This document shows, one piece after another, positions 3,354 to 61,127 of a stretch of 64,000 bases of DNA. The stretch covers positions 36,083 to 100,082 of the forward strand of contig JBBSWJ010000005.1 of NCBI GenBank assembly GCA_038046345.1. Direction: 5' to 3'. Under the pieces are notes generated by a model that saw nothing but the letters and a program-made list of their open reading frames with translations, was not told the origin of the DNA and searched no databases. Position 1 is the stretch's first letter. The number at the start of each line of letters is the position of its first letter. A program made the position numbers and the translations under genes. Source of the stretch: Nanobdellota archaeon (GTDB lineage: Archaea; Nanobdellota; Nanobdellia; SCGC-AAA011-G17; JACPNG01).

Positions 3354-3406
3354 AAGCAGTACGTGGAAACTGTTAATTTCGACATACCATGCTCTTTTCC
3401 GCGCAT
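3354..3406 (-). other. 53-nt BHB intron in 23S rRNA helix 91 (after about A2534)
   Basis: Central helix GCAG/CUGC, bulges AA|A and UU|G, intron stem UGCGCGGAAA/UUUCCACGUA; removal restores H91. Confidence 0.88.
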
Positions 3407-3419
3407 TTCTGCACGACCA

Positions 3420-3451
3420 CTCTACGATACAAGAATCTAATCTTTGTATCC
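3420..3451 (-). other. 32-nt BHB intron in 23S rRNA (after about C2521)
   Basis: Central helix CUAU/GUAG, bulges CC|G and AG|U, intron stem GAUACAA/UUGUAUC. Confidence 0.9.
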
Positions 3452-3495
3452 GGATAGGAAGAGCCGACATCGAGGTAGCAAGCAGCGCCGTCGAT

Positions 3496-3521
3496 AAACT
3501 CGGAATCAATTTATTGATCCT
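3496..3521 (-). other. 26-nt BHB intron in 23S rRNA helix 89 (about 2477)
   Basis: Central helix GCUC/GAGU, bulges AA|A and UU|A, intron stem GGAUCAAU/AUUGAUUCC. Confidence 0.85.
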
Positions 3522-6141
3522 TTGAGCTCTTAGGCGCTACAACTCAATTATGCCCGAGATAGCTTTTCTGTCATGTCTAGCCCCCATCAATGAGGACATA
3601 GAAGTTCGCTAGGCCATACTTTCGTACCTGAATCCCGTATTGTTTGGAATCCAGTCAAGCCAGCTTTTGCCCTTGCACTCCACAGAGAATTTCTAAATCT
3701 CTTGAGCTGACCTTTGGGCCCTACTGATATCCTTTCAGCAGGGTCCCGCCCCAGGCAAACTATCCGCCAGTAGTTGTCTTTCATTACTGAAGTAAGTAAT
3801 ATAGAATACAGAGGGTAGTATCTCACTTTTGCCTAAACGTACACTGGCGTGCACGCATCAACAGCTCCTACCTATTCTTAACACCATACTCCATACCACA
3901 GCTACAAGCTATAGTAAAGTTCTACGGGGTCTTCGCTTCCCACTGGAATTCTCTGGCCTTTGCACCAGAATAGTGTGTTCGGGAGGTTCTACGTAAAGAC
4001 AGTGGATACCTCGTTACGCCATTCATGCAAGTCGTCAATCAAACGACAAGGTATTACGCTACCTTAAGAGAATTATAGTTATTCCCGCCGTTTACACGCT
4101 CTTAGCCCCCTTGAAAAGGAGTTTAAAGTACATGCACTGGGCAGACGTCACCTCCTATACAAACCATTACTGGCTAGCAGGAAGTTTCGTTTTTGTTAAA
4201 CAGTCGGGCATCCTTAGTTATTGAATCCTGTACTCGCAACTAAAAGCTACAAGCGCAGGAACCCCTTATGCCGAAGTCACAGGGCCAATATTGCCGATTT
4301 CCTTTACGTAAATTACCCCTCTCATACCTTAGGCTACTAACCCAGGGCACCTGTGCTGGTTCTGGATACGGTTATTTATGATCCTTCCATATTGTTTTTT
4401 CACGGGCTCAAGGCATCTACCCAATCAACATACATTGACTATTCTCAGCTTTTCTCAGGTTCTCATCATGACAATTCTCCCCTGACATATGCTAATTAAC
4501 AACCATGTCTATGATTGTGGGTATAGCCCAAAGCAGCAACAATAAGGCTTTCGTCGCCGAATGTACATAAATAGTACTGGAATATTAACCAGTTTGCCTC
4601 TTCCCGCACGTCAATTTATGAGTGCAGTTAGGTCCGACTAACTCTTAGCTGAACTGCAGTGCTAAGAAAACCTTGCCCTTTCGGTATTAGAGAGTCTCAC
4701 TCTATATAGGTCCTACTACCACCGGGATTCTTATTCGTACACGGTCCATTTACTTTCACAAGTATACTTCCATCCATGCACGACACCTATCTACCACCTT
4801 GCTTTACAGCAAGTCTGAAGTATCGGTCGTCAGTTTAGCCCCGTTAATTTTCAGGGCATAATACCTTGACGGGTGAGCTATTACGCTTTCTTTAGAGGAT
4901 GGCTGCTTCTAAGCCAACCTCCCCGCTGTCTCTGGTATTACACACCATTCACCCTTTCACACTTAACTGACAGTTAGGGACCTTAACTTCAGGCTGGGAT
5001 GTTCCCCTTTTGGGACACACGCTTACCGCGCGCCCCTGCTTCCCGCCTTCTACGACGCATTGACATTTGGAGTTGAACAAGAGTGAGAGGAATTTCTTCC
5101 CTTAACATTCTAATCCGTAGCTCTACAACCAATGCTATCTCGAGCGAGACTATTCTGCGGCATATTTCGATAGGAACAGGCTATTAGCAAACTCGATTGG
5201 CTTTTCACCCCTAATCCCAAATCATAAGAGCACATGCACGTAGCACCTCTTCAGGCCTCCACCTCGTATCACCAAGGCTTCACCTTGCTCAGGATTAGAT
5301 CGTCTGCTTTCCGGTCAGACCCCCATGACTTAAGGCGCTTTCACACCTCGCTCCTCGCAAGCTGCGAGCATTTGCTTTCGCTCAGCATTCGTACTAAAAG
5401 TACTTACGCTCGCCATGAAGATCAACTCCCCGGCCCGTTATTCAAAACGTACGGTGCAACTCATGCTGCACCATTCTATAACCGTAAGGTTTCAGGAACT
5501 TTTCACACCCTATCAGAGGTACTTTTCAATGTTCCATCACTGTACTATTTGCTATCGGACTTAAAACATATTTAGCCTTAGAAGTTGATGCCTCCTAAAT
5601 TCCTGCTCAATATCCAATGAACAGTACTATGGATACTTGTAAATCTTTCACGATTATCCTACGGGGCTATCACCCTGTGTCGCATACCATTCCAGATAAC
5701 TTTAGATAAACATGTTAAGATGAAAAACAAGTCCAAACACCACATGTTGCTTCTTTTTCAAGAAGTAATTCGGTTTAGGCTATACGGATTTCGCTCGCTG
5801 TTACTCACCGCATCTCAATTGATTTCTTTTCCTGCGGGTACTAAGACGCTTCAGTTCCCCGCGTTATACATCCTCTCGGATTTAATAGGAAGTCCTATTC
5901 GGGAATCATTGGTTCGTAGGCTGCATGCGCCTCGCCAATGCATTTCGTAGCTTGCCACGCCCTTCATCTTTGTTTTTAAGCCGAATCATCCACCTTACGG
6001 CGTAATGACCTATAATTACACACAATACCTATACACGATATCATTAAATGAATATTTCATCTGTCCTAAGACTATGATATCCTTCACCCACAACAATTCA
6101 GTTTGTGAGTTGCACTATTTCATTAAAAAATGAATATGATA

Positions 6142-6249
6142 TGGACCCGTCGGGAAAATCGACGATCCAAGATGTCTAATGCAAATCGTTTTCGAACCCG
6201 AGGCCCCTACCTTGCAAGGGTAATGCTCTACCAGCTGAGCTACGGGCCC
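6142..6249 (-). tRNA. tRNA-Ala(TGC) in the 16S-23S spacer, with a 35-nt intron at 59/60 (6156-6190)
   Basis: GGGCCCG/CGGGUCC acceptor stem, A73, UUACC-CUUGCAA-GGUAG anticodon arm; mature length 73 nt after removal. Confidence 0.95.
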
Positions 6250-7042
6250 AAACAATTGGATTGACTGTACGAGATTAATTTCAGTGATTAGAATAGTAAA
6301 AAAAATAGGAGGTGATCCACCTGCAGGTTCCCCTACAGGTACCTTGTGACAACTTACCCCACCTTACTGAATCTAGGTTCGAATACACCATAAAGGTATA
6401 TGCTCACCTAAATCCTGCTCGGTTGGATTGATGGGCGGTGTGTGCAAGGCACGTTGACGTATTCACCGGACCCTGATGAGATCCGATTACTAGGAATTCT
6501 GGCTTCATGAGGGTGAATTGCAACCCTCAATCCGAACTGAGATAGGGTTTAGAGGATTGACTTCTCCTTTCGGAGTTGTAGCCCATTGTCCCTACCATTA
6601 TAACGCGCGTGTAGCCCAGAAGATTCGAGCCATACTGACCTGTCATTGCCTACACCTTCCTCCCACTTACGCGGGCAGTCTCTATAGTGTGCACAATCAT
6701 CCCGGAGGACTTGTTAGCAACTGTAGATGTAGATCTTGTTCGTTAACTGACTTAACAGTACATTTTACAACACGAACTTACGACGGCCATGCAACATCTC
6801 TCGGCTTGTTAGGTACGCCCTTCAGACGGACCTTCATCCTGCCATCGCCTCTGGTGAGGTTCTCCGCGTGGAATTGAATTAAACCGCACGTTCCACTCCT
6901 TGTAGCGCGCCCCCGCCAATTCTTTTAAGTTTCAGTCTTGCGACCGTACTACCCAGGCGGCGGATTTAACACCTTCGCTACAGCACTGCACGATCACTTA
7001 GAACATGCAATACTTAATCCGCAGAGTTTACGGCTAGGACTA

Positions 7043-7073
7043 TTCCCGGTGATATATTATTTATCACATCACT
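7043..7073 (-). other. 31-nt BHB intron in 16S rRNA (after about G800)
   Basis: Central helix CCCG/CGGG, bulges AG|A and AA|U, intron stem GUGAU/AUCAC. Confidence 0.88.
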
Positions 7074-7080
7074 CTCGGGT

Positions 7081-7112
7081 ATTTAGCAAATATTAGATAA
7101 CTAAATATTTGT
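7081..7112 (-). other. 32-nt BHB intron in 16S rRNA (after about U793)
   Basis: Central helix UUAG/CUAA, bulges AU|A and AU|A, intron stem CAAAUAUU/AAUAUUUG. Confidence 0.9.
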
Positions 7113-7365
7113 ATCTAATCCGGTTTGCTCCCCTAGCTTTCATTCCTCACCGTCAGATCCGTTCTAGACACGTGCCTTCGCCATTGGTCGTCTTCCAAGG
7201 ATTATCACATTTAACCGCTCCCCAAGGAATACGCATGTCTTCTCCCGGTCTCTAACTACAGAGTGACCCTTGCACGCTGTCATATTAATGATGACAATTT
7301 CACAAAGGACTATTGTAGTCGGCTACGAATACTTTAGGCCCAATAATCGTGATCGCCACTTGTGG

Positions 7366-7404
<39 letters not shown>

Positions 7405-8149
7405 CCACTTATTCGCCAAGCTATTTACACTTGGCAAAAGCCTACCCGGAGGTAAGCACTTAGGTTTCCCTTGTCACGCTTTCGCGCATTGCAAAGAATC
7501 CTTGCCTGCTGCACTCCTTAGAGCTAGGGCCCTTATCTCAGTGCCCTTCTCGGGGCTAAGACTCTCATCTCCCCTACTGATCTATGCCTTGGTGGGCCAT
7601 TACCTCACCAACAAGCTAATCAGCCGCAGTCCTATCCTAAGGCGTTTCCTTTCATGAAAGACACATTCCAGTTATCTTTCAATATCCAGGTTTACTCTCA
7701 ATTTCTCGAGACTATCCTGAACCTTAGGGCAAGTTAACTACGTGTTACTGAGCCTTTTGCCGGTGCTTCCGAAGAAGCCCCTTGACTTGCATGGCTTACT
7801 GAAACCTAATAGCAGCGATCTCCCGCAAGATCAACGGGAATTATTTTGGTCGCATAAAATTGGAAATTTTTGTAATACTTTACTACTCATAACCATTGCT
7901 GCTTTATCTCGTACATCATACTTAATACTTCTGATTAAGTATTCACGTATTATATCACTAAAGTGATATTTTAAGAAGATTAAAAACTATGCTCAATCTT
8001 CATTAAGTGAAACAAGTGTTGGCATCTAGCTTATAAATATTTCTGTTCATGTGCTATAGCATGATAAACGAAAAATTAGTTTGGGCCTGACTTTCAATTT
8101 CGTATAACATACGAAGTCAGGTAAAAGATATTCGTATCCAAAACTGCTT

Positions 8150-8407
8150 TCATTTCCTAGCTTTCTTTATGGCACTTTCAACATCAGCTTTGGTTATACC
8201 TTTCTCCTTGGCGAATTGCTGCGTTTTTTGAAGCAGTTTATCAAAGTTTTTGAATGAAGGCATCGTTACTTTTTTTAGTATGACTGTATCATCTTCTCCA
8301 ACAACTACAAATTTTTCCCCTTCCTTTAAGCCTAATTGCTCCCTTATATCCAAAGGTATAACTACCTGCCCTCTTGAGCTCATGCTTGTTATTTCCAATC
8401 TTTGCAT
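8150..8407 (-). CDS. AbrB/MazE/SpoVT-family DNA-binding protein
   Basis: MSSRGQVVIPLDIREQLGLKEGEKF swapped-hairpin motif; GGAGG RBS upstream. Confidence 0.9.
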   Translation of the reverse strand: MQRLEITSMSSRGQVVIPLDIREQLGLKEGEKFVVVGEDDTVILKKVTMPSFKNFDKLLQKTQQFAKEKGITKADVESAIKKARK

Positions 8408-8423
8408 TTTGTTTGCCTCCTTG

Positions 8424-8454
8424 ATAAGAATATCTTATTAGTAAGAGTATCTTA
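8424..8454. promoter_or_regulatory. Tandem palindromic operator candidates upstream of the AbrB-like gene
   Basis: ATAAGA-N3-TCTTAT (8424-8438) and TAAGA-N3-TCTTA (8442-8454). Confidence 0.55.
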
Positions 8455-8579
8455 TATGTAAATGCTGTGCTTTGGGGGATGTAGCACAATCTGTATTGGT
8501 TAGCAGGAAACTAAACCTAATTTTGTCCCTCAGCCCAATCACAAGAAATACTTATAAGTTATAAAAAATATGCATACTA

Positions 8580-9257
8580 ATGCTTACCCCAATAATCCTT
8601 GCTTGTCTTCTGTCAATAGCGCATATTTTCAGCGAAAAAATAAGTAGTGCCATTGAAGAATATCACGAAAAGATATTAAGTTTTAATTCAGGATTGTTCA
8701 TTGCGTTTTTATTTTTATTTTTAATACCTGGAGCAATTAAAGAAAGTCTAAACTTAAAAAATGTATTTTATTACATGCTTACTGGGTTAGTTGCGTTTCA
8801 TTTGGCAGAAAAATATTTGTATCAACATATTAGACATAAAAAAGAACTTATGAAAGAACTTGCATGGCTGCACATTATAGGCTTCTTTATTGATTATTTT
8901 GTTATTGGATTAGTTTTGTCATTAACGTTTATCACGGAAAAAGAACTAACTTTTTTAATATTTTTACCTTTTTTGCTGCATACAGTTTCTTCATCATTTT
9001 CCCTAGAGCACATTACTGAAAGATTTAACAATAAGCTACTAAAAATGTTATTGTCAATAGCTACAATAATAGGTGCAATTGCCGGACTTTTTTTACAGCT
9101 TACAAAAGCTATACTGCCTTTAATATATCCAGTGTCAGTTGGAATATTAATTTACATTACTATGAGGGACATGATACCCAAAGGTAAGGATAAAAACCCA
9201 TTATTATTCTTGATCGGTGTTATGATAACTGTATCAGTGTTTATAATCACTAACTAA
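8580..9257 (+). CDS. Multi-pass membrane protein, ZIP metal transporter-like
   Basis: About 7-8 TM helices, His residues in TMs, C-terminal GILIYITMRDMIP resembling the ZIP C-terminus. Confidence 0.6.
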   Translation: MLTPIILACLLSIAHIFSEKISSAIEEYHEKILSFNSGLFIAFLFLFLIPGAIKESLNLKNVFYYMLTGLVAFHLAEKYLYQHIRHKKELMKELAWLHIIGFFIDYFVIGLVLSLTFITEKELTFLIFLPFLLHTVSSSFSLEHITERFNNKLLKMLLSIATIIGAIAGLFLQLTKAILPLIYPVSVGILIYITMRDMIPKGKDKNPLLFLIGVMITVSVFIITN

Positions 9258-10308
9258 TCTTCTTAAGCGAATAAAGCACTTTTTCAAAGACAGAGTAAGC
9301 ATATTTTAGTTCTTGAACGCTGGTCAATTGGCTTATGCTTAATCTTAACGCGCTTTTAATTCGCTCCTCAGGCAAATTCATAGCTAACAGGACATGGCTT
9401 GGCTTCTGTTCTCTGGCCGAACAAGCACTCCCAGAACTAACAAAAACTTTTTTATGCGATAGATGTTGTAACATATCCATGCTTAGAACACCAAATGATA
9501 TATTTAACAATCCATGTACACTCTTTTTTGGAGTATTAACCACCCCAAGAGCCCTGAATCTTTCAAATTCTTTTAATACTTTGGAAGAAATAGGAGAATA
9601 ATTTTGAATAGCTTTTGCAAAACCAGCAATTCCAGGGACATTTTGTGTACCAGCACGTAACCCAAACTCTTGAGAACCAGCAATTAAAGATTTTGCTTTA
9701 GTAGGATCATTCACGAACACAGCACCAACTCCTTTTGGTCCGTGAATCTTATGAGCGCTAATAGTAAGAAAATCAACAGGAATCTTCTTCACGTTAAAAT
9801 CTAGCTTACAAAAACTCTGAACTATATCAGTATGAAACAGAGCTTTACAATCACGAGCCACATCATTCCAGTATTTTATATCTTGAATAGCACCTACCTC
9901 GTTATTAACATGAATAACAGATATTAATCCCGTGCCTAGCTGAGGTTCATATTCCTTAACGAAACATTCTTTATCAACGGGTAAAAGTTTATAATTGCAT
10001 TCTTTGCCTGGATCAAGTAATGACTTATGTTCAACAGCGCTCATTAAAAGTTTTTTATTTCTTGGAACTTGTTTTATAATAAAATTATTCCCTTCAGAAC
10101 CGCAAGAAGTAAAAATAATCTGATCAGCATTAGCATTAATCTTTTTTGCAACAACTTCTCTAGATCTTTCCAGAGCATCTGCTGCTACTTCACCTAAACG
10201 ATGCATTGAAGAAGGATTGCCAAACTTTTCATTGAAAAAAGGAAGCATGGATTCTACCACTGATTTTGTTACAGCAGTAGTAGAAGCACTATCAAGATAA
10301 GCTTGCAT
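9250..10308 (-). CDS. iscS: Cysteine desulfurase (IscS/NifS family)
   Basis: YLDSASTT, FGNPSSMH, SAHKIHGPKGVG (PLP Lys), SSGSACS; start corrected to ATG 10308. Confidence 0.92.
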   Translation of the reverse strand: MQAYLDSASTTAVTKSVVESMLPFFNEKFGNPSSMHRLGEVAADALERSREVVAKKINANADQIIFTSCGSEGNNFIIKQVPRNKKLLMSAVEHKSLLDPGKECNYKLLPVDKECFVKEYEPQLGTGLISVIHVNNEVGAIQDIKYWNDVARDCKALFHTDIVQSFCKLDFNVKKIPVDFLTISAHKIHGPKGVGAVFVNDPTKAKSLIAGSQEFGLRAGTQNVPGIAGFAKAIQNYSPISSKVLKEFERFRALGVVNTPKKSVHGLLNISFGVLSMDMLQHLSHKKVFVSSGSACSAREQKPSHVLLAMNLPEERIKSALRLSISQLTSVQELKYAYSVFEKVLYSLKKIS

Positions 10309-10358
10309 TTGCTTGATATAACAAATAGTATTTAAATAAGTTTCTTTTAAAAAAATCA

Positions 10359-10967
10359 ATGATGCGCGCAAAAAAACTAAGTAATGATGTGTGGGAGCTG
10401 TCCGGAGGATTACAACCAAGCTCAAATGTATATTATATTAAGTCCATGCAATTGCTAATAGACTTAGCAAGCGAAAAAAATAAAGCAGACTTATTACAGC
10501 AGCTAGAGTTCATAAATGTAAAAGTTGAAGATATTAAGATCATTATTCTAACACACTTTCACTTTGACCACATTGGCAACTCAAAACTATTTAAACACGC
10601 AAAATTCTATGCTTCAGAAGATGAAATTATTAGCTATAGATTTGCACCAAGAAAAACAACTGGTAGCACTGGAAAAGAAATAGAAGGAATAAACATAAAA
10701 AAAATACCTGAAAGAATAGGTATTCTAAAAATCATTAAAACTCCAGGGCATACTAGAGGTTCTATATGCATACTCAAAGAAGATGATAAAATATTATTTA
10801 CCGGAGATACATTATTTCGAAATGGAGCGGTTGGTTGCACCAAACTACCAACATCTGTACCAAAAAAGATGGAAGAATCATTAAAAACTTTGTTAGCTAT
10901 CCCACACAACGAATTAGGACCGGGGCACAATCTTGAAGATGGACTTATACTACAACAACATCATTAA
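10359..10967 (+). CDS. MBL-fold metallo-hydrolase
   Basis: THFHFDHIG, TPGHTRGS, FTGDTLF, GPGH. Confidence 0.92.
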   Translation: MMRAKKLSNDVWELSGGLQPSSNVYYIKSMQLLIDLASEKNKADLLQQLEFINVKVEDIKIIILTHFHFDHIGNSKLFKHAKFYASEDEIISYRFAPRKTTGSTGKEIEGINIKKIPERIGILKIIKTPGHTRGSICILKEDDKILFTGDTLFRNGAVGCTKLPTSVPKKMEESLKTLLAIPHNELGPGHNLEDGLILQQHH

Positions 10968-32026: not shown

Positions 32027-32601
32027 GAGTAGTAATAGCTGGTGGGCCATATTGTGGTAAAACAACAGTAATAAATGAATTAAGCACACAGGGCTTTAGG
32101 ACAATAAACGAAGCAACAACGGAGATTATTAAAAAGGAACAAGAAGCAGGTAATAACGAACCATGGTTAGAAAGAGAAAAATTTCAGAAAAAAATCATGG
32201 ATCTTCAAATTCAACAGTTTAATTCAGCAAAAAATAATGTAATTACTTTTTATGATCGGGGTTTAGTTGATGGATTAGCATACTATCATTTAGATGGCAT
32301 TGACCCACCAAAAGAACTAACAGAACATGCCTCAAAAAAAAGGTATAATCTTGTTTTCATTCCGGATCTTATTGAAGGATTCAAACCTGACAAAACTCGT
32401 GGTGAATCACTTGAAGAACGTAAGCTAGTTCATGAGCTTATCAGAAAATGTTATTCTGATCATGGTTATAATGTAATTAATATACCAAGCATAAGCGTTT
32501 CTGAACGTGTATTGTTTATTAAAAAGAAGATTAGCGAGCATAAACTACTTTTAAAAGATAATATACGCCGAGAGCAGGATTTGAACCTGCATATCCGTTA
32601 G
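32011..32601 (+). CDS. AAA_28 / NadR-like P-loop kinase-ATPase
   Basis: GGPYCGKTT, FYDRGLVDGLAY, RYNLVF; 3' end overlaps tRNA-Ser antisense. Confidence 0.85.
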   Translation: MDNQIRVVIAGGPYCGKTTVINELSTQGFRTINEATTEIIKKEQEAGNNEPWLEREKFQKKIMDLQIQQFNSAKNNVITFYDRGLVDGLAYYHLDGIDPPKELTEHASKKRYNLVFIPDLIEGFKPDKTRGESLEERKLVHELIRKCYSDHGYNVINIPSISVSERVLFIKKKISEHKLLLKDNIRREQDLNLHIR

Positions 32602-32661
32602 GAAACAAGCTTACTGGTATAATTTCCAGGCTTGCGCAATACCAAGTTATGCGATCTCGGC
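32566..32661 (-). tRNA. tRNA-Ser(GGA) with a 12-nt canonical 37/38 intron (32612-32623)
   Basis: GCCGAGA/UCUCGGC, G73, long variable arm, CAAGC/GCUUG stem; splice helix CUGG/CCAG with AA|A and UA|A bulges. Confidence 0.92.
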
Positions 32662-32733
32662 ATGTTATTGAAATAGGTATGTCATTAAAAAATGTTTTGT
32701 TAAGAGAATATTTATAATGTTTCATATACCATC

Positions 32734-39816: not shown

Positions 39817-42603
39817 TTATAATTCTTTTATACCCTTTCTATCTTTTATTTGTTTTCTTATTTTATCTTGCAATGATTCAGGCAGCTTCTCATACATTTG
39901 GTCTACCACAAAATAGCTACCCCGGCCACCAGTAGCGGATCTTAAGTCGCTGCTTAATCCAAACATTTCACCAACAGGTAGCTTGCATTTAACGGTCATT
40001 TGTACTCCCTCTTGTTGCACTTCTAACAATTGCCCTCTTTTATTTTGTATTAATTTAGATACATCTCCTAAATAATCACTAGGCGCTCCAATATGTAATT
40101 CCTGTACTGGCTCATAAATATATGGTTTTCCTGTTAGTATAGCCTCTCTTATCCCCTCTCTTACAGCGGGGTATACCTGGGCTGGCCCACGATGTATTGC
40201 ATCTTCATGTAATTTCATATCAGTAACTCTTACTTTCATCTTCATTGTTGGTTCTTTTGCAAGTATTCCAGCATCGCAAACCTGTTCAAAACCATCTATT
40301 ACTAATTCTATTACTTCACCTATCTGAACTATACCACGAGTGTCATCAACTAATAAGTTTCCCTTGTATATATCCCTATATTTCTTCGCGTCTTTTAAGA
40401 TAACTCCTTTCTCTTCTAATTTTTTAAATGTATCAACATCCTTTTTTTTAAGCCTGCCATCAGGTATTTCTCCGTCCCTCATTAATTGATAAATCTCATC
40501 TTCTAAAGGTTCAACAATAAAAAAGAATTTATTATGTTTATTTGGGGATTTTCCTTCTTTTTCTTCAGATACCTTGGTTACCGCTTCTCTGTACACAACA
40601 ATAGGCGGGCTTGTCCTTACTTGCAAACCTTTTTCTGTTTTTATCCTATTCTCAATAACTTCTAAATGTAGTTCGCCCATTCCAGAAATTAAGTTTTCTC
40701 CTGTCTCCTCATTAATTTCGATTGTTATTGTTGGATCCTCTTTGTTTACTTGCTTTAGTACTTCAACAAGTTTTGGCAAGTCAGCAGGAGATGTTGCTTC
40801 AATACTTTTTGTAACAACCGGGTCAAATATATGTTTTATTGCTTCAAACGGTTCCATTTCTTCAGATGCAATTGTCTCTCCAGCAAACACATTTTTTAAC
40901 CCCACTAAACCTACAATATTACCAGCAACTGCTTTTTCAACGGTTACTCTTTGAGCTCCTTTGTATATCGATACCTGTTGTATTCTAATCTTTCTTTTTG
41001 CATTGATCATATATGCATCATCGCCCTGTCTTACAGTTCCAGAGAATAATCTACCAGCCGTTACTTCTCCTGCATGTTTATCAATAACAATTTTTGTTGC
41101 TACAAAAGCAGTCGGACCATTAGGATTACAGTTTACTAATGACTTTCCAATTTCAGAATCTAAATCTCCATGCCATATTTTTGGCACTCTGTATTTCTGA
41201 GCGTCTACAGGGTTTTTATGGTGTGCTATTACCATCTCGAGGACAACTTCATGCAATGGCGCTTTTTTTGCTATACCCTTCCATTCATCATTTTCATATG
41301 CTTTTATAACATCTTTAAAGCTCAGCCCATTTCTTAGCATATAAGGAGCAGATAACGCCCAATTATGAAATGCAGATCCAAATGCTACACTCCCATCTTT
41401 AACATGAACTAACCATTTTTCTTTAAATTCTTCTGGGGCTACACTCTGTATGAACTTGTTTATCTCAGTTATTATTTTCACAAATCTTTCTTGCATTGCT
41501 TCAGGTGTTAGTTTTACTTCTTTTATTAAACGATCAACTTTGTTTATGAATAATACTGGCTTGACTCTTTCTCTTAACGCTTGACGCAACACGGTTTCTG
41601 TTTGAGGCATTATACCTTCTACTGCATCACATAATACTATTGCCCCGTCTACAGCTCTCATCGCTCTTGTTACATCTCCTCCAAAGTCTACATGCCCGGG
41701 CGTGTCAATTAGATTTATTAGAAAATCTTTTCCATTAATTACGTGAACCATAGATACATTTGCTGAATCAATTGTGATCCCGCGTTCTTGTTCATCTGCG
41801 TGGAAATCCAAAGCTAATTGTTTTCCAGCTAACTCTTGTGACATCATCCCGGCTCCTGCCAATAAATTATCTGAGAATGTTGTATTATGGATCACCATTC
41901 CCTCAGCAACAAAATTATGATTGTCTGCAACTGTAAAATCGTATACCATATCTTTCTGTGTTATCTCTTTTGAATTAACCTCACAGTACATAATATCTTC
42001 ACTTAATATTTTATTCTCTTGGATTAATATTTGTCCATTATTCTCTATTTTTTCTTTATAACCACTTAATGAGATTGATATTGCATCTTTTTGGTGCGGC
42101 CAACTTTTCATGCAAACTACAAGATCCTTCAATTCTAATTCTCTTGCTTCTTTATAACAAAAGTCACGTGCGAGCCTATCCAAAACTAAATAACGATGTT
42201 CTGGTGTTGTTTCAATTGAGCTGCCATTTTTTAATTTTATTTTTATTAGTTCACCGCCAGTTAATTTCCAAGCAAGGCTGATTAGTTTCTTTTCTATTTT
42301 CCCTGAATCTTTATTTAATGATAATACCTTAACACATTGGCTTGTAACATCATAAACAACATGACCATTCTTTTTTTCAAATAGTTTTCCATTTTTTATG
42401 ATCTTATCAAATAGCTTCTCTGCCTGTATAACTGAGCTATCACCTAAAATAATTCTAGACTCACCAGAAATACATTTCCCATGATATCGTTCTATGAAGG
42501 GTTAACTCGATAGAAAATCGATATGGGCGCATATAGCTATATTTCTGATTTGTTCCGGTTCATTCATTAATTTAACAACTTTTTCTGCTATCTTATCCGC
42601 CAT
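39817..42603 (-). CDS. fusA: Elongation factor 2 (aEF-2), interrupted by a BHB intron (42484-42516) and a mini-intein (41884-42474); mature protein about 720 aa
   Basis: Exon 1 MADKIAEKVV..RNIAICAHID, then HGK, intein, TTFSDNLL..DEQERGITI..DTPGHVDFGG..NKVD..HEDAIHRGPAQ. Confidence 0.95.
41884..42474 (-). mobile_element. 197-aa mini-intein in the EF-2 P-loop (GK|T)
   Basis: Begins CISGES, block B TTPEH, ends VYDFTVADNHNFVAEGMVIHN followed by Thr; no endonuclease domain. Confidence 0.95.
42484..42516 (-). other. 33-nt BHB intron inside the fusA coding sequence
   Basis: Outer helix CCCAU/AUGGG, central helix AUCG/CGAU, bulges AU|U and AU|C, intron stem UUCUAU/AUAGAA; contains in-frame TAA. Confidence 0.92.
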
Positions 42604-53853: not shown

Positions 53854-53870
53854 TGGTAGATACGCTCCAT

Positions 53871-53905
53871 GTTGAGCTTAAATCATCAGTTGATCTAAAC
53901 TCTAC
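53871..53905. promoter_or_regulatory. Imperfect inverted repeat (operator candidate) upstream of grpE
   Basis: gttgagcttaaatca-N5-tgatctaaactctac, 12 of 15 matched. Confidence 0.45.
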
Positions 53906-53968
53906 TAATATATATAGTTTTCGGTTAATTTTAGGTAGTTTTATAAAGTACCATAGCATAACACTGCC

Positions 53969-54367
53969 ATGATCAGGCGTTTTACGAGAATTACTATCAT
54001 CAAAAAGATTATCCCAAGAGAGATGACTATTAACGAAGAATTACAAGCCTTTTCTGATGCGATAGGCTTATTTGGCGAACGTGATAAGGAAAAATCATGC
54101 TTCCGTATCTTTGTTACCCTGCTAAGAAAGGACTTCCCGCTCACATCTGATGAAATTGCAGAGTTATCAAACTTATCCAGGGGTACTGTAATTCATCACA
54201 TCAACAGGCTAATGGACGCAGGTATTGTTATAGGGATAAAGAATAAATACCAGCTAAGAACAAATAAATTCTCAAAACTTGTAGAGTATCTAGAACATGA
54301 TGTTCAAACTTACTTCCGTGAATTACGCAAGCTTGGAGAACAGATAGACGAAGACCTTATGATATAG
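53969..54367 (+). CDS. Winged-HTH transcriptional regulator (ArsR/MarR-like)
   Basis: LTSDEIAELSNLSRGTVIHHINRLMDAGIV. Confidence 0.88.
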   Translation: MIRRFTRITIIKKIIPREMTINEELQAFSDAIGLFGERDKEKSCFRIFVTLLRKDFPLTSDEIAELSNLSRGTVIHHINRLMDAGIVIGIKNKYQLRTNKFSKLVEYLEHDVQTYFRELRKLGEQIDEDLMI

Positions 54368-54409
54368 CCATCTAAACATTTAAATAGATTTACACCAAAA
54401 AATGTAACT

Positions 54410-55060
54410 GTGAATTATAAAAAAGAGAAAGAAAATTTAGTAAAGCATTGGAAACGTGAAAGAGTAGTTAACAACAAATCTGTTTTAGACGCTTTCTTAA
54501 GTGTACCAAGAGAAAACTTTGTTCTTAAAGAATATAAATCAGATGCCTATCATGACCATCCTCTGCCAATACTTTCAGGTCAAACAATTTCTCAACCAAC
54601 CACTGTTATTATCATGCTCGATCATTTAAAAGTCAATAAAGGAGATAACATCTTAGAGATTGGTGCCGGTTCAGGATATCATGCTGCATTATTGTCCATA
54701 CTTACTGGTTCAAGAGGTAAGGTTATTTCTACAGAAGTTGTTCCAGAGCTAGTTGATTACTCAAAAAAAAATCTTAAAAAATATAAAAATGTCAAAGTAA
54801 TTAAAGTTGATTCTGACTTAATAGGATTTAAAAAAAATGCTCCTTATGATAAAATCCTAGTTACTGCGGCCCTACCAGATGTTCCAGATGAGTTATATAA
54901 TCAACTAAATAATGGTGGTGTTTTAGTCCTTCCAGTCGGCGGAGAATACAGTCAAGAAATGCTCGCCATAACACGTCTGAAAGGTAATTTAAGAAATATT
55001 GAAAGGTTAGGCTTTTTTCAATTTGTTCCAGTAAGAGGAAAATTTGGATTCCTACCTTAA
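54410..55060 (+). CDS. pcm: Protein-L-isoaspartate O-methyltransferase
   Basis: VPRENF, GQTISQP, LEIGAGSGY, APYDKI, FVPVRG. Confidence 0.93.
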   Translation: MNYKKEKENLVKHWKRERVVNNKSVLDAFLSVPRENFVLKEYKSDAYHDHPLPILSGQTISQPTTVIIMLDHLKVNKGDNILEIGAGSGYHAALLSILTGSRGKVISTEVVPELVDYSKKNLKKYKNVKVIKVDSDLIGFKKNAPYDKILVTAALPDVPDELYNQLNNGGVLVLPVGGEYSQEMLAITRLKGNLRNIERLGFFQFVPVRGKFGFLP

Positions 55061-55221
55061 TGACTATATGTATATGCAGATGATGGTGAGTATCCGCCTG
55101 TATAAATTGTTCTACTTTTTTTTATAAAATTATCTGGGATATACCCCATTTCATTGATTTCTGCATCACACATACCACTTAATAGTAGTTAATTATATAT
55201 AAAGCTTTCTATAAGCAAACA

Positions 55222-55731
55222 TCACTCTATATAATACTTCCCTGGAAGTTTTGGAATTGCAGACCTCAATGCAACCCTAGCAGAAACAATATCCTTCTTG
55301 TCACATAACACACTAATAACCGCCTGGTTCTTCTTAACCTGAGCTGCAGATCCAATGGCTTTACCAAACGCCCTCTGCATACCAGTCTGCATTCTATCAG
55401 CTCCAGCACCTGTAATCATCTTGTTCTCTCTCAAGATATGATGCGGATAAACTCTTACCTTTAAATGATAATTATTCCCTAATAACTTTATTAAATTTCT
55501 ATGAATATCCTGTCTTGCACTCTCAATTGCATTATGCCTAATCTGTATTTCTTGCTTTACTCTCAAATTGACCATGCCCTCAAACTCCTTTTTTAAGTTA
55601 CCCTGATCATACTTTACAATTTTATTTGGAGGTACCGCCTTTATGTATCCCTTTCCCTTATATTTAGACCTTCTTGTATAAGCTCTTTTATGCTTTGTGT
55701 TATAACACTTTCCTTTCCTTAATCCGGCCAT
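55222..55731 (-). CDS. rplP: 50S ribosomal protein L16 (uL16/L10e)
   Basis: QIRHNAIESAR, RVYPHHILRENK, GADRMQTGMQRAFGK. Confidence 0.95.
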   Translation of the reverse strand: MAGLRKGKCYNTKHKRAYTRRSKYKGKGYIKAVPPNKIVKYDQGNLKKEFEGMVNLRVKQEIQIRHNAIESARQDIHRNLIKLLGNNYHLKVRVYPHHILRENKMITGAGADRMQTGMQRAFGKAIGSAAQVKKNQAVISVLCDKKDIVSARVALRSAIPKLPGKYYIE

Positions 55732-55732
55732 T

Positions 55733-55996
55733 CTAAAGTACCTCTACCTTTTTTCCTAATGCTTGCCCAGGTAAACCTCTTTCAAATATAGCTCTAACAG
55801 CACCCTTATTCCCATGTTCTTTAACAATCTCACCAGTTATTAGTTTACCAGAAGAGCTTTTCCATTTAACGGTTTTATGTAATAACTTTAAAGCGCTCTC
55901 TTTGTTATCAACTTTAGGTACCTTTAAAATTATATGATTTCCATACTTATACCTATTCTTTTTACTACCACGATAATGTATGATAACCGCTTCCAT
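55733..55996 (-). CDS. rpl35ae: 50S ribosomal protein L35Ae
   Basis: HGNKGAVRAIFERGLPGQALG. Confidence 0.93.
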   Translation of the reverse strand: MEAVIIHYRGSKKNRYKYGNHIILKVPKVDNKESALKLLHKTVKWKSSSGKLITGEIVKEHGNKGAVRAIFERGLPGQALGKKVEVL

Positions 55997-56094
55997 TTTA
56001 TCAGTTTACCTTATAGTTACTTTTAAAGCTTTTGTTTTAAAATCATGGGTCCACTTTCCATTAAATTTTTATATATGTTACTCCTTTCATTAAC

Positions 56095-56394
56095 ATGGGC
56101 GCAATAAGAAGTATCATCTACCATGCACTCAGTGCCGCTGTTATTGGTAGCGTTGCTTATTGTACTGTGAATACTATTACTAGCCCCACTTACGGCGCAG
56201 TAAACCAGAAATTACCTGAAGAATACACTATCCAGCAAATCTCTAAAAGATTAGTAGACGCATTTGGTATGCCAGCAAATACTCCAACAGATGATCCAAA
56301 CGATCTTAGTAATATTGTTATTCATGGATACGAAAGCATTGACAACGCATTAGAAAAAGTTATAGAAATGAACAAAAAAGAATTAGACTTATGA
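56095..56394 (+). CDS. Hypothetical exported protein
   Basis: 99 aa with N-terminal hydrophobic segment. Confidence 0.55.
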   Translation: MGAIRSIIYHALSAAVIGSVAYCTVNTITSPTYGAVNQKLPEEYTIQQISKRLVDAFGMPANTPTDDPNDLSNIVIHGYESIDNALEKVIEMNKKELDL

Positions 56395-58236
56395 ACTTAC
56401 CATTATTTCTACTTCTTTTCCAAATAGTTTTCTCAAATCTTCAAATATGCTTTCCTTGATAAATACTGCAGCGGGTATAATTGTTCCTTTTAAATAACCC
56501 TCTAGTTCCGCTGTGCTTGATTTTCTTATGTTTTTTATTTTTCCATCAACAAGATCAGCTTGCTGTATATCATCAGGGTTTCTTGTATCCGCTATCAAAA
56601 AAACCTTTTTATCCAAGAGTAATGCTTCCCCGATTACGTCATCATACTTAAACCTTATTTTTGCCTTCTCTAAGTCTCTTAATCTTATACTCTGTATAAA
56701 ATCAACAAGAACCCGCATATAGTCCTTTGACTCTCTTCTCATTTTCTCAATTTCTTGCTTAGTTATCTTCTTCTGGTCAAAATCATTCTTAGACTTTATT
56801 ACATTCTTTAGTGTTCTCAACATTTTTTCTGGTAACTTTCCTTTATCAACTAATTCTTTCTTAAACAGGCTGACCAAATTAGTTGATGTTATACCCTTGA
56901 CATTGCTCACTTCAAGTGCGTCTCTTGCTGTCTTGACTACTGTGTCATAAGTATCCTTTACAGAACTCATTTGTGAACGTTTATCAATCTGATCAAATAG
57001 CTTCCTGATTCTTTTAAGATACATGTCAGCTTCACTGAGGAAAGTATCTATTTCTTTTCCTTGAACATTTTTTATTTTATTATGTTCTATATCTTTGAAA
57101 AAACTTATTACTTTTCTTAAAATATCAACATACTTTTGTTCTAATATTTTCTCTTTTCTTACAAAAATCTCTTCCATTAAACTGGCTGCTTCTTTAGGTG
57201 TTGGGGGGCTCAAACCATAAAGCATTAAAGCAGCTTGAGCAGGATTAAGCATTGCATAGTAAAGATCATCTCCAACAATTGAGATCATCTTATGCCTTGT
57301 TCTTTCCAGTAATCTTTCTCCTAGATCCATATTCATATCAATTGCTTCAGGGCTAGGTTTAACTCTACCCATTTTTAATAATAATTTCCATGGCATGAAA
57401 ACACCACGATCGTATAATGGAACTCCATCTCTTAGAAACGTGTATATCACTGGATTTGCTTCTTTAATTAATTCCCAAAAGTCTGTTAAAATATAGGTCT
57501 GCACATGGAACTGTGCCTTTACCCCTGCAATTGCTGAAGCTTCAGCGCCCATAGTTAATATTATTGATCTTAACTTCTCTTTGAGCTCAAATCTTGACAT
57601 TCTTTTTACGTCTGTATCATCAATTACTACAAATACATCTATATCATGTGGATTAGCATCTCCACGAAATAAAGATCCTGCAGCTACATATGAAAGGACA
57701 TACCTTTCAAATCTTCTTATGCTCATACCTTTATGTATCTCAGAAACTTTTATTGCGCCTAACATCCCTTTATCATAAAGCAAAGCACTCCATCCTATCA
57801 TTTGCAGCAAATCAAATTTGCCATCAAAGCATGCTTCTTTTAGCTCCGATAATAACATTGTTTGTGGGAATAGCTTCCCATTGATATCATGTCCTATTTT
57901 ATCAATGACTGAAAACAGTTTAACTTCTAGATCTTTCCTCTGTATCTTAGTATCTATATCATCATCTACCAGCACAAACACATTGATGTTATCTTTTTCT
58001 TCTGGTTTTGCATTTCTATCTGGCGGGAATAACGCTATTCCAATTATGTGTTTATCAAATTTTTTTAAAATTTCACTAGTAAATTTATCTAAATCTTTTT
58101 TTAAGGTTTCTAGTTTTTTTTTAAGTTCTTCTGGTATTTCCTTTGGCTGGTTTATATCCAACTTTGGTTGATCCACCCCGTATGCATATGGATCACTTGA
58201 TTGATTAGATTTTTTTTCAGAGTATTTTTCTTGCAT
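56389..58236 (-). CDS. Nucleotidyltransferase-domain protein (tandem MNT-like domains plus HEPN-like region)
   Basis: AGSLFRG..DIDVFVVIDD; degenerate first copy INVFVLVDD; LYYAM..AQAALM. Confidence 0.7.
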   Translation of the reverse strand: MQEKYSEKKSNQSSDPYAYGVDQPKLDINQPKEIPEELKKKLETLKKDLDKFTSEILKKFDKHIIGIALFPPDRNAKPEEKDNINVFVLVDDDIDTKIQRKDLEVKLFSVIDKIGHDINGKLFPQTMLLSELKEACFDGKFDLLQMIGWSALLYDKGMLGAIKVSEIHKGMSIRRFERYVLSYVAAGSLFRGDANPHDIDVFVVIDDTDVKRMSRFELKEKLRSIILTMGAEASAIAGVKAQFHVQTYILTDFWELIKEANPVIYTFLRDGVPLYDRGVFMPWKLLLKMGRVKPSPEAIDMNMDLGERLLERTRHKMISIVGDDLYYAMLNPAQAALMLYGLSPPTPKEAASLMEEIFVRKEKILEQKYVDILRKVISFFKDIEHNKIKNVQGKEIDTFLSEADMYLKRIRKLFDQIDKRSQMSSVKDTYDTVVKTARDALEVSNVKGITSTNLVSLFKKELVDKGKLPEKMLRTLKNVIKSKNDFDQKKITKQEIEKMRRESKDYMRVLVDFIQSIRLRDLEKAKIRFKYDDVIGEALLLDKKVFLIADTRNPDDIQQADLVDGKIKNIRKSSTAELEGYLKGTIIPAAVFIKESIFEDLRKLFGKEVEIMVSS

Positions 58237-58367
58237 ATAATTAAGTCTGCATGTGATATATATTTAAAACTTCCGTCTAAACAAAATTAGTTTATATTTT
58301 ACCTATTAAATTTGACCACTCTTAGAAAGTAAGATTGTCTTATAAATCATTAATAAAATTAATTTCC

Positions 58368-58730
58368 ATGATCAGCCTAAGCGGATTAGCAATAGATTAT
58401 AACCCCAGCAGGCTACTGTTGGGAAGAGGTCTAAAGATTATTGTGTTTGATCACCGCGTCCATAGTTATACCCGTGGCGAACTCGATACGAGACTGAATG
58501 CTTACACAGATCACAAAGTTGAAGTGCAACATATCAACATAGCTGATATTGTCAGTGCTATCTACACTGGTATTTTAAGGATGGTTAATAATAATTTTAT
58601 GGTAGGTAACAGAAATCTAACAGCCATGTTATTACAGGAAGGATCCAACCCAGTAGGAGGTACCATCCTAACTTTTGATTGTTTAACTCCTTCTGTAGAT
58701 TCTGATATAAACCCAAACTACTTTCATTGA
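58368..58730 (+). CDS. Hypothetical protein
   Basis: Longest ORF in the gap; no motif recognised. Confidence 0.35.
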   Translation: MISLSGLAIDYNPSRLLLGRGLKIIVFDHRVHSYTRGELDTRLNAYTDHKVEVQHINIADIVSAIYTGILRMVNNNFMVGNRNLTAMLLQEGSNPVGGTILTFDCLTPSVDSDINPNYFH

Positions 58731-58819
58731 TTACTTAATAGTAATAATAATAGAAAGTTTTATAAACAACAATTGACATCGGTGACCCTTATTAACCACA
58801 CAAGCAAGGTACAAAAACA

Positions 58820-59827
58820 ATGTTTAACACAATACAAATCTATGAATTTCCAAAAATTGTTGGTCAAGAAGAAACTAAATTCCAGGTTAATTCTGCGCTG
58901 TTATCAGGTAGGAATATAATCCTAGTTGGACCGCCAGGAGTGGGAAAGACTACACTGGCAAAAAACGTAGCAGAAACACTTCCAGAGCTTACATTAAATA
59001 CATGCAGCTTCCACTGTGATCCAAACAACCCATTATGCCCTAAATGCAAAACAAAAAACCAAGAGAAAAAGATCATTAAGGGTTTTGAGAGATTTATGAG
59101 GATACAGGGATCTCCAGACTTAACTGTCGAAGATCTTTTTGGAGATATTGACCCAATAAAAGCATTACAATTTGGTCCATTATCCACAGAGGCATTCACT
59201 CCTGGAAAAATTTTCAAAGCTAACCATGGTGTGTTATTTTTTGACGAACTAAATCGTTGCCCAGAAAAATTACAAAATGCTTTACTACAAGTTCTTGAGG
59301 AGAAGAAAGTAACAATTGGGAGTTATGACATAGATTTCCCAGCAAATTTTATCTTTATTGCAACAATGAACCCCGATGATTTCACCGGTACAGAAAAACT
59401 ATCAGAGGTTTTGCTTGATCGCTTTGATATGATTTATTTAGATTATCCAAAGACTACAGAATCAGAAATAGAAATATTAAAAAAATCAGGTAAGAACCTA
59501 AACATTAATTTTCCAGAAAATCTAATGATCCATATGACTGTGTTTGTAAGATCATTAAGGGAAAATAAAGATCTTGAACGTGTTCCAAGTGTTAGAGCTA
59601 CTATAGGATTATATGAAAGAGCTCAGAGTAATGCTTTATTAGAAAATAAAAAAATTGTTTCATTAAAAAACATACAAGATGCAATATTCTCAGTATTAGT
59701 GCATCGCATTAAACTAAAACCAAGTCTTAAGTACCTAAAAACACCAGAAAATTTTATTCATAAACAGTTTAAAGATTACTGCAGAGATCATAATCTAGCC
59801 ATAAACGAACCTGGTGATGCTGGGTAA
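58820..59827 (+). CDS. AAA+ ATPase, ChlI/MoxR-like
   Basis: GPPGVGKT, KANHGVLFFDELNR, IATMNP, LLDRFD. Confidence 0.9.
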   Translation: MFNTIQIYEFPKIVGQEETKFQVNSALLSGRNIILVGPPGVGKTTLAKNVAETLPELTLNTCSFHCDPNNPLCPKCKTKNQEKKIIKGFERFMRIQGSPDLTVEDLFGDIDPIKALQFGPLSTEAFTPGKIFKANHGVLFFDELNRCPEKLQNALLQVLEEKKVTIGSYDIDFPANFIFIATMNPDDFTGTEKLSEVLLDRFDMIYLDYPKTTESEIEILKKSGKNLNINFPENLMIHMTVFVRSLRENKDLERVPSVRATIGLYERAQSNALLENKKIVSLKNIQDAIFSVLVHRIKLKPSLKYLKTPENFIHKQFKDYCRDHNLAINEPGDAG

Positions 59828-60974
59828 ACCAGACAAAGCAAGAGAGCTAGAAGAGATTCCAGGAACTTTGTCTCAACAGGAAGAAGAAGACAAATTAATG
59901 AATACAGTTATTGAAGGACAAAAAGAAAAAGAAGCAAAGATTATTATGAATGCTTTAAATCATGGAATATTTGCATTCAATCCTGACATGATGTTTGAAC
60001 AAATTGTAAATAACTATCAAGAAGCCAAAGACCTGTATGGTAATGGATTCTTAAAGTCACTTGATATATCAGAAAGAGACATAAATTTTCCTGAAGTTCA
60101 TAAAAAACTTAAAGATAAATTAATTGAGGAAATTGAGAAACTGCAAGAGGCCGGTTTTATAGATTCAGATAATAGCATCACTGAAAAAGGTTTAACCATT
60201 GCAGCATTATCAATGTATGTTGAAGAGCTTGAAAGCTTGGAATCAAGAGGATTGATCGGGATAAAAACAAATAAAAGACTTAGTCATTACGGAGATCGGG
60301 AATCAATAAGAGAATATAAACGTGGTGATCGTTATAGAGACATAGCAATTAAAAACAGTATTCATCATGCCATCAGGCACAACCATAACAAATTAAAGAA
60401 AGAAGATTTAATGGTACATTCACGTAAATCAAAAGGGGGTATAGAAATAATTTATGGAATTGATGCTTCTGGATCAATGAAAGGTAAAAAAATTGAAGCT
60501 TGCAAGAAAGCAGGAATAGCATTAGCATTCAAAGCTATTAATGAACATGACAAAGTTGGTTTAATTGTATTCGGAGCAAATATTGAGACAAGTATTTCTC
60601 CAACAAATAATTTTATTGAATTGTTGCACTCCATAACCAGAGTTCGAGCTAAAAACAAAACTAATCTCAGAGATGGAATAATGAAATGCATAGAACTTTT
60701 TTCTTCAGAAGATACAACCAAACACTTGATACTAATAACTGACGCAGTACCAACACATGGGGAAGACCCAAAAAAAGAAACACTGTTAGCAGTTGATTCT
60801 GCAAGAAACTCTGGTATTAACATTAGTGTTATAGGCATAAAACTTGATAAAGAAGGCGAAGAGTTAGCTAAAGACATAACCCGAATAGGCGATGGCAGAT
60901 TATATCTATTACACGAACTTAACGGAATTGACGAGATTGTACTAACGGATTATTATAAATCCAGCTATACTTAA
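59814..60974 (+). CDS. VWA domain protein (partner of the AAA+ ATPase)
   Basis: DASGSM MIDAS, T, ILITDAVPT. Confidence 0.9.
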   Translation: MMLGKPDKARELEEIPGTLSQQEEEDKLMNTVIEGQKEKEAKIIMNALNHGIFAFNPDMMFEQIVNNYQEAKDLYGNGFLKSLDISERDINFPEVHKKLKDKLIEEIEKLQEAGFIDSDNSITEKGLTIAALSMYVEELESLESRGLIGIKTNKRLSHYGDRESIREYKRGDRYRDIAIKNSIHHAIRHNHNKLKKEDLMVHSRKSKGGIEIIYGIDASGSMKGKKIEACKKAGIALAFKAINEHDKVGLIVFGANIETSISPTNNFIELLHSITRVRAKNKTNLRDGIMKCIELFSSEDTTKHLILITDAVPTHGEDPKKETLLAVDSARNSGINISVIGIKLDKEGEELAKDITRIGDGRLYLLHELNGIDEIVLTDYYKSSYT

Positions 60975-61022
60975 AGCGTGTTTGGTAAATTTTATAAATC
61001 AATAACCTACATCATACTGCAC

Positions 61023-61127
61023 GGGCCCGTGGTCTAGCGGCTAGGCTAACTCAATTACTGTGTTAACCCCGCAAATGACGTCTCGTTTACACCGAGGAGA
61101 TCGAGTGTTCGATTCACTCCGGGCCCA
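61023..61127 (+). tRNA. tRNA-Val(TAC) with a 32-nt D-loop intron at 20a/21 (61043-61074)
   Basis: GGGCCCG/CGGGCCC, UCUCG-UUUACAC-CGAGG; BHB central helix GCGG/CCGC with bulges CU|A and AA|A; mature length 73 nt. Confidence 0.93.

Follow-up and report, generated by a model that had tools for sequence, protein, structure and literature searches.

To our knowledge, cbf5 has until now been the only archaeal protein-coding gene shown to need splicing of the transfer RNA (tRNA) type. Its messenger RNA (mRNA) precursor contains a bulge-helix-bulge (BHB) intron in Sulfolobales and Desulfurococcales (Watanabe 2002; Yokobori 2009, PMC2738675), and archaeal BHB introns are also known in ribosomal RNAs (rRNAs; PMC6125680, PMC4496867) and tRNAs (PMC5829648, PMC12397907). 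Here we describe nine inserts in a 64 kb stretch of DNA, referred to as the window (G000:C5:36083-100082), from a woesearchaeal DPANN genome (G000; other G numbers denote genomes of relatives and L numbers denote loci). The inserts are 12-53 nucleotides (nt) in length and lie in 23S rRNA (three), 16S rRNA (two), tRNAs (three) and the gene for the translation factor EF-2 (one). We consider it very probable (about 0.9) that they are genuine archaeal BHB introns, cut by an EndA endonuclease of the alpha4 type and joined by the ligase RtcB. The genome comprises 821 kb in 35 contigs, is 97% complete and has a guanine + cytosine content of about 33%.

The protein-gene introns of this genome resemble the cbf5 intron in being short, in lacking an open reading frame (ORF), in their patchy gain and loss among relatives and in the presumed cutting by the tRNA endonuclease (PMC2738675). 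They differ in their hosts, which are here EF-2 and rnhB, in lineage (DPANN, Woesearchaeota) and in that the EF-2 intron is located in the P-loop beside an intein. Pre-mRNA splicing has been linked to a heterotetrameric endonuclease, at least in the title of Yoshinari et al. (2006) as cited in PMC5829648; the predicted enzyme of the present genome is, by contrast, a plain alpha4 EndA.

Archaeal rRNA introns such as those of the Thermoproteales 16S genes (Jay and Inskeep 2015, PMC4496867) likewise occupy conserved positions with a BHB at the junction, are sporadic among relatives and disrupt universal primer sites (PMC4496867, PMC6125680), and DPANN rRNAs are known to contain both BHB and group I introns (Nawrocki 2018, PMC6125680). 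Compared with these, the five rRNA introns of the window are only 26-53 nt in length, contain no ORF and leave exons of 7 and 13 nt between them. Non-canonical introns are also known from the tRNAs of Thermoproteales, of ARMAN and of further DPANN (Marck and Grosjean 2003; Kaneta 2018, PMC5829648), and as in the present genome several may occur in one tRNA, distributed over the D-, T-, variable and anticodon regions. In the published trend they go together with EndA enzymes that carry L1, L2 or L3 insertions, whereas none is present, relative to M. jannaschii, in the EndA of this genome and the intron motifs are canonical.

No report of a BHB intron in EF-2 was found in the full-text literature, in which most subscription journals are out of reach. 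A more distant parallel is the splicing of HAC1/XBP1 mRNA in eukaryotes, in which the protein enzyme IRE1 cuts the mRNA at a structured motif, RtcB or another tRNA-type ligase joins the exons and no functional protein is made from mRNA that is left unspliced. Cutting of an mRNA at a structured motif and joining by a tRNA-type ligase are the shared features; the endonuclease and the motif differ, and the regulatory role belongs to the HAC1/XBP1 system. A Nanobdellota genome preprint of 2026 mentions introns only for a tRNA. In our view, the rRNA and tRNA introns are of a known kind and the novelty lies in the hosts and in the unusually dense arrangement that gives rise to micro-exons, with the family of EF-2 introns being the most valuable part.

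BHB geometry of the nine inserts

All nine inserts had been listed in the first-pass annotation, and Rfam, MAFFT, ARAGORN and translation place each of them where it had been reported, with the reported lengths (six of the nine being 31-35 nt). They were described there as ORF-less hairpins in which the 3' end pairs with the upstream exon, which is what we observed using a script that tried, for each insert, every register yielding the same spliced product (the register script). Excision regains conserved rRNA, tRNA or EF-2 sequence in each case (9/9). As a comparison of sister genomes indicates, most relatives lack the five rRNA inserts as well as the one in EF-2, and the same sites are used in some of them.

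An exact 3-4-3 BHB core is found in register in eight of the nine inserts, and that of tRNA-Ala has three of the four central pairs. At random sites of the same length, a fully paired central helix (H, 4/4) in the equivalent register occurs with P = 0.038, and one accompanied by an inner helix of at least 2 base pairs (bp) with P = 0.010. Given a null rate of about 0.01 per site, the presence of the motif in eight or nine of nine inserts is far beyond chance. Furthermore, the boundaries set by homology coincide with the BHB geometry at all nine sites, and unconstrained minimum free energy (MFE) folding with 22-nt flanks recovers the full BHB in five of the nine inserts.

Several observations weigh against this interpretation. 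At the other four sites the MFE structure lacks the 4-bp central helix; the intron hairpin is present, but competing pairings win. The central helix of tRNA-Ala carries one mismatch and the tRNA-Ser intron adopts a bulge-helix-loop form, and mismatched and bulge-helix-loop forms are poorly processed by alpha4 enzymes (PMC5829648). Outer helices are missing at some inserts. Features expected of BHB introns are found, namely the motif with predicted cut sites after the second bulge nucleotide, a mature sequence that is restored by excision and the presence of EndA and RtcB genes. Membership of group I or group II is not indicated, the inserts being 12-53 nt in length compared with a ribozyme core of hundreds of nucleotides and the window containing no Rfam intron family. 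The first-pass annotation also proposed that introns of the EndA type extend across rRNA, tRNA and mRNA and lie in conserved functional cores. BHB cores do occur in all three classes of RNA, in 23S helices h89-h91 beside the peptidyl-transferase centre, in the 16S 790 loop, in tRNA loops and in the EF-2 P-loop.

In the mechanism that we propose, the last nucleotides of the upstream exon in the precursor RNA would pair with four nucleotides near the 3' end of the intron, forming a 4-bp helix between two 3-nt bulges. A single alpha4-type EndA would cleave each bulge 3' of its second nucleotide, RtcB would join the exons, giving mature 23S, 16S, tRNA-Ala, tRNA-Ser and tRNA-Val and an EF-2 mRNA reading AHIDHGK. 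EF-2 would then also need protein splicing of a mini-intein. We infer from the sequences that cleavage and ligation take place in the cell.

The rRNA and tRNA introns

Rfam identifies an archaeal 23S gene, an archaeal 16S gene and two tRNAs, one of them truncated, in the window. The rRNA features, all on the minus strand, are as follows.

3005..6017, minus: 23S rRNA gene with three introns (Rfam RF02540, 2405 bits)
3354..3406, minus: 23S intron, 53 nt, h91 loop; H GCAG/CUGC, bulges AA^A and UU^G (MAFFT, register script)
3420..3451, minus: 23S intron, 32 nt; H CUAU/GUAG, inner helix 7 bp (MAFFT, register script)
3496..3521, minus: 23S intron, 26 nt, h89; H GCUC/GAGU (MAFFT, register script; full BHB in MFE)
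6307..7841, minus: 16S rRNA gene with two introns (Rfam RF01959, 1342 bits)
7043..7073, minus: 16S intron, 31 nt; H CCCG/CGGG, inner helix 8 bp (MAFFT, register script; BHB in MFE)
7074..7080, minus: 16S micro-exon ACCCGAG, 7 nt, 790-loop nucleotides between the two introns (MAFFT, register script)
7081..7112, minus: 16S intron, 32 nt; H UUAG/CUAA, bulges AU^A and AU^A, inner helix 8 bp (MAFFT, register script)

A BLAST search with the 16S gene against 30 relatives is broken at query positions 731 and 797-800, where the sequence of the relatives is unbroken. In the MAFFT alignment with 13 relatives this region reads GGATTAGATA[32 nt]CCCGAG[31 nt]TAGTCC, and both inserts are missing in 12 of the 13. 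The 31-nt intron is present in none of the aligned relatives, while the site of the 32-nt intron (793/794) is occupied in G029 by an insert of 75 nt with identical H and bulges. By count against the E. coli sequence, the sites are at about 793/794 (32 nt) and about 800/801 (31 nt). The target of the widely used primer 806R is interrupted by both introns (window 7043-7112) and is matched by the spliced sequence; with this target broken, organisms of such a kind may be missed or mis-sized in amplicon surveys.

The 23S gene was aligned with eight relatives. Seven of these are without the 53-nt intron, and in the eighth, G015, a BHB insert of 83 nt takes its place, so that intron sites of both rRNAs are occupied in a relative (16S in G029, 23S in G015). 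None of the eight carries the 32-nt intron, which is separated from the 53-nt intron by an exon of 13 nt. Counted in the same way, the 23S sites are at about 2477/2478 (26 nt), 2521/2522 (32 nt) and 2534/2535 (53 nt). We note that the 23S genes of five relatives (G010, G013, G017, G019 and G029) have inserts of about 180-900 nt near query position 1958, a position that fits the DPANN group I intron sites LSU/1923-1931 (Nawrocki et al. 2018, PMC6125680), and that the 16S gene of G010 has two inserts of about 750 and 175 nt.

In default mode ARAGORN called no tRNA in the whole window, which was an early hint that its tRNA genes are interrupted. The three genes and their introns are listed below.

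6142..6249, minus: tRNA-Ala(UGC) gene in the 16S-23S spacer, G3:U70 (partial Rfam match; Ala by ARAGORN once spliced)
6156..6190, minus: tRNA-Ala intron, 35 nt, at 59/60 in the T-loop; inner helix 8 bp, outer helix formed by the T-stem (register script, ARAGORN)
32565..32662, minus: tRNA-Ser(GGA) gene, class II, G73 (ARAGORN after excision, Ser(GGA), 86 nt)
32612..32623, minus: tRNA-Ser intron, 12 nt, at the canonical 37/38; H CUGG/CCAG (register script, folding)
61023..61127, plus: tRNA-Val(UAC) gene (ARAGORN after excision)
61043..61074, plus: tRNA-Val intron, 32 nt, in the D-loop after nucleotide 20; H GCGG/CCGC, weak flanking helices (register script, ARAGORN, folding)

The mismatch in H of the tRNA-Ala intron (3/4 pairs) is at U54. 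A regular expression for this tRNA had no match in the rRNA spacers of relatives and is uninformative as to whether the intron is present in them. In the bulge-helix-loop of tRNA-Ser the 5' site lies inside an 8-nt loop and the outer helix is the anticodon stem. The intron mode of ARAGORN called this gene Thr(GGU), a call that we rejected as resulting from a wrong intron register, and labelled tRNA-Val(UAC) as SeC; an alternative excision that it offered for the latter (32 nt, after nucleotide 13) destroys the A14/G18-G19 D-loop and was also rejected. In this lineage, tRNAs will be under-counted and mislabelled by automatic annotation.

Across the genome there are about 35 Rfam tRNA matches, many of them over-long. 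Using a heuristic that combines BHB excision with ARAGORN, and which is approximate, about 16 of roughly 37 tRNA genes are interrupted, several by two introns, such as Gly(UCC) with 30 + 30 nt and Ile(GAU) with 32 + 13 nt. The gene for tRNA-Phe(GAA) (region G000:C27:1838-1911) has a 32-nt T-loop intron at 59/60 in which, as in tRNA-Ala, H has 3/4 pairs, and the 59/60 introns of Ala and Phe may represent a recurrent intron type.

EF-2 introns in the window and in other species

The EF-2 gene is the single match to this protein in the genome and is interrupted twice within its P-loop region.

39817..42603, minus: EF-2 (aEF-2/fusA) gene (Pfam GTP_EFTU, EFG_III, EFG_IV, EFG_C)
42484..42516, minus: EF-2 pre-mRNA intron, 33 nt, in-frame UAA, in the P-loop at Asp29/His30 (translation, register script, folding)
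41884..42474, minus: EF-2 mini-intein, about 197 residues, Cys1 ... His-Asn / Thr+1, after HGK (Pfam Intein_splicing, translation)

The frame runs MADK...AHID, 33 nt containing TAA, HGK, mini-intein and TTFSDN, and outside the intron it is intact across 894 codons. The intron is made up of helices h (CCCAU/AUGGG) and H (AUCG/CGAU) and an inner helix (UUCUAU/AUAGAA), with bulges AU^U and AU^C. When spliced, the gene reads AHIDHGK, the same as in relatives. The mini-intein begins 9 nt downstream of the intron, and inteins are found at the same EF-2 site, between HGK and T, in G021, G019, G006 and G029 (loci L092, L100, L103 and L095). Inteins and, 2-9 nt upstream of where these sit, BHB introns both occupy this segment, which makes the P-loop coding region a hot spot common to the two.

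Two samples were examined, the first consisting of 30 family- and order-level relatives and the second of 80 species-representative EF-2 loci of the Woesearchaeota type. In the first sample, a BHB insert of 31 nt interrupts the gene of G030 at the very phosphodiester bond that is interrupted in the window, G029 has a 38-nt insert at this site together with an intein (locus L177), and G027 has a 32-nt BHB insert 7 nt downstream, within the Lys codon. An apparent 34-nt insertion in G006 (L103, G006:C49, about 1350-1383) was rejected because it is a run of N that mimics an insert in BLAST. The 80 loci of the second sample comprise 61 that are uninterrupted, four with an intein only, three without a detectable N-terminal part, two that are ambiguous and ten with short inserts. 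Short inserts are thus present in ten of the 77 loci in which the N-terminal part was found; the carriers G030 and G027 fall outside the 80. Six of these loci have inserts of 28, 30, 31, 31, 32 and 35 nt between AHID and HGK, to which the 38 nt of L177 are to be added. The inserts of L122 and L187 are 4 nt upstream and that of L127 is in the Lys codon. In total, 12 other species have EF-2 inserts of 28-38 nt, eight at the site used in the window and four nearby (G027 and three others). Among the 77 other Woesearchaeota-type species that were sampled, 11 (about one in seven) have such an insert at this P-loop position or close to it. For every one of them the spliced product is AHIDHGKTT. Their lengths are mostly not multiples of three, which makes read-through impossible.

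The helices of these homologous introns are kept by compensatory change. Since the gaps in the MAFFT alignment (A1) were inconsistent with the stems, pairs were counted from the splice sites instead. Among eight same-site introns, 103 of 120 cells are paired in this way, a count that falls to 30-52 of 120 on sliding the partner by 1-3 nt, and each of positions 1-4 of the inner helix shows three or four types of pair. In L161 a synonymous exon change, ATC to ATT, is answered by CG to CA in the intron. The divergent intron of G029 was excluded from this table but has the same pairing. On a quick EF-2 tree the 13 carriers are scattered and require 12 state changes; being based on 250 residues, the tree is weak evidence as to the order of events.

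The decaying of the gene, an assembly error or translational bypass would be a barely credible explanation of the EF-2 insert, one suggested by the in-frame stop, by the genome having been assembled from a metagenome and by the precedent of phage T4 gene 60, in which the ribosome bypasses about 50 nt, since this is the sole EF-2 gene in a 97%-complete genome, it is otherwise intact, equivalent inserts with covarying BHB helices are present in independent assemblies of 12 other species, and a ribosome leaving at the GAU that precedes the insert and landing on the one within CGAUAU would continue in the wrong frame. It appears instead that an essential translation factor, together with RNase HII, needs tRNA-type splicing in a DPANN archaeon whose endonuclease is of the simplest type. 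Such genes are probably read as truncated genes or pseudogenes by gene callers, which could skew inferences of completeness and metabolism for small archaea.

Enzymes, extent and origin

The first-pass annotation invoked an endonuclease of relaxed specificity and proposed that EndA and RtcB be typed. The genome has one RtcB gene and the following EndA gene.

G000:C32:1525-2064: EndA gene, 180 residues, with the N-terminal and the catalytic domain (PF02778 and PF01974) in one ORF (Pfam)

No second EndA-like gene was detected in the genome by Pfam or by a self-search at E up to 10. In an alignment with the alpha4 EndA of M. jannaschii (1A79) that spans residues 14-180, there is one gap, of a single residue, and the Tyr/His/Lys positions are kept. 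The six-residue insert that precedes the catalytic His in the N. equitans alpha subunit is absent from the alignment, and the specificity loops (L1/CSL, L2/ASL and L3) show no insertion relative to M. jannaschii EndA. Judged by sequence, this is an enzyme of the plain alpha4 type.

Heavily disrupted DPANN tRNA genes have been associated with insertions in EndA (Kaneta et al. 2018, PMC5829648), a trend from which this genome departs, its introns keeping canonical cores. Of the alternatives considered, the one that survives best is that a broadened endonuclease is nevertheless required, such as one with a second subunit that escaped detection or with a novel loop. This association, the introns at many non-canonical tRNA positions, the one bulge-helix-loop and the two T-loop introns with a mismatched central helix are consistent with such an enzyme. 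We regard it as unlikely in view of the single EndA-like gene, the near-gapless alignment to M. jannaschii alpha4 without the N. equitans insert and the strict 3-4-3 cores of eight of the nine window introns. With an EndA that lacks added specificity loops and introns that have canonical motifs, the relaxed specificity that had been proposed is not needed. The simplest reading is that the introns are free in position and strict in motif, for which a motif-strict enzyme would be sufficient. A loop-less alpha4 EndA in combination with many non-canonical intron positions offers a test of the published idea that the spread of introns requires a broadened enzyme.

A further alternative is that the rRNA inserts are cut out without ligation, leaving fragmented rRNA, or are kept as expansion segments. 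Fragmentation of rRNA is known from other organisms, and the absence of the central helix from four of the nine MFE folds could be taken in its favour. However, exons of 7 and 13 nt consisting of universally conserved nucleotides would be lost without ligation, RtcB is present, retained inserts would break the 790 loop and h89-h91, and each of the five rRNA sites has an exact BHB register. We therefore consider this very improbable and return to excision by EndA followed by ligation as the preferred explanation for the rRNA as well as the other inserts.

The idea that minimal introns colonise any transcript, which accompanied the proposal of a relaxed enzyme, led to the prediction of further introns in mRNAs. 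One was found in rnhB (G000:C21:13660-13689); it is 30 nt in length, has an in-frame TAA, an H of CGGA/UCCG and an inner helix of 6 bp, and the spliced product reads GIDDSGRGP. The cbf5 gene of this genome is uninterrupted. Structural BHB scans of the genome gave 9,616 and 297,087 matches at two stringencies, numbers which in an A+T-rich genome indicate that structure alone cannot find introns, and ORF-merging filters were rejected as a sole intron finder because they are too noisy. As a reference for a census we used the complete 737 kb genome of an order-level relative (G017), with the proteome of which the genome was compared in four ways (split high-scoring segment pairs, junction peptides, in-frame gaps with BHB and missing N-termini). 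This revealed no interrupted gene beyond EF-2 among about 600 shared genes and missed rnhB, the comparison having low sensitivity to short first exons and to introns shared with the reference and so not being exhaustive. The prediction holds for rnhB; mRNA introns in this genome are few, with two known (EF-2 and rnhB), and colonisation of any transcript, as it was worded, is not supported. The first-pass interpretation as a whole is partly supported.

As to origin, the 32-nt 23S intron (3420-3451) and the 35-nt tRNA-Ala intron (6156-6190), when aligned at the same offset, agree at 18 of 22 positions. The score of this pair, 22, equals the maximum of 3,000 shuffles, and other pairs among 19 introns are near noise. 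This likeness within one operon is a possible sign that an intron was copied into another RNA. A TAAG...CUUA core is common to the EF-2 introns despite their scattered distribution on the EF-2 tree. It is conceivable, but in our view doubtful, that the woesearchaeal mini-introns are still mobile, moving at conserved sites from one RNA to another within a genome as well as from genome to genome, and that the EF-2 P-loop is a hot spot for them. We treat this as a minority reading because the shared rRNA sites, the 18/22 likeness and a reverse transcriptase gene show no mechanism of gain. If it were true, the EF-2 and rnhB introns might couple the expression of these genes to the RNA-splicing capacity of the cell.

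The reverse transcriptase is a stand-alone protein of 374 residues with RVT_1 as its only domain (G000:C30:11705-12829, minus strand; L190:2206-3330), and its gene adjoins that of a class II aminoacyl-tRNA synthetase. The first-pass annotation had suggested reverse ligation followed by reverse transcription as a possible route of intron gain, but nothing connects this gene with the introns. A split topoisomerase gene on C20 was considered as an intron candidate and rejected, the interruption being a LAGLIDADG intein; in this topoisomerase I gene (G000:C20:1396-5127; L191) the Toprim region is interrupted by a large intein that includes a LAGLIDADG homing-endonuclease domain.

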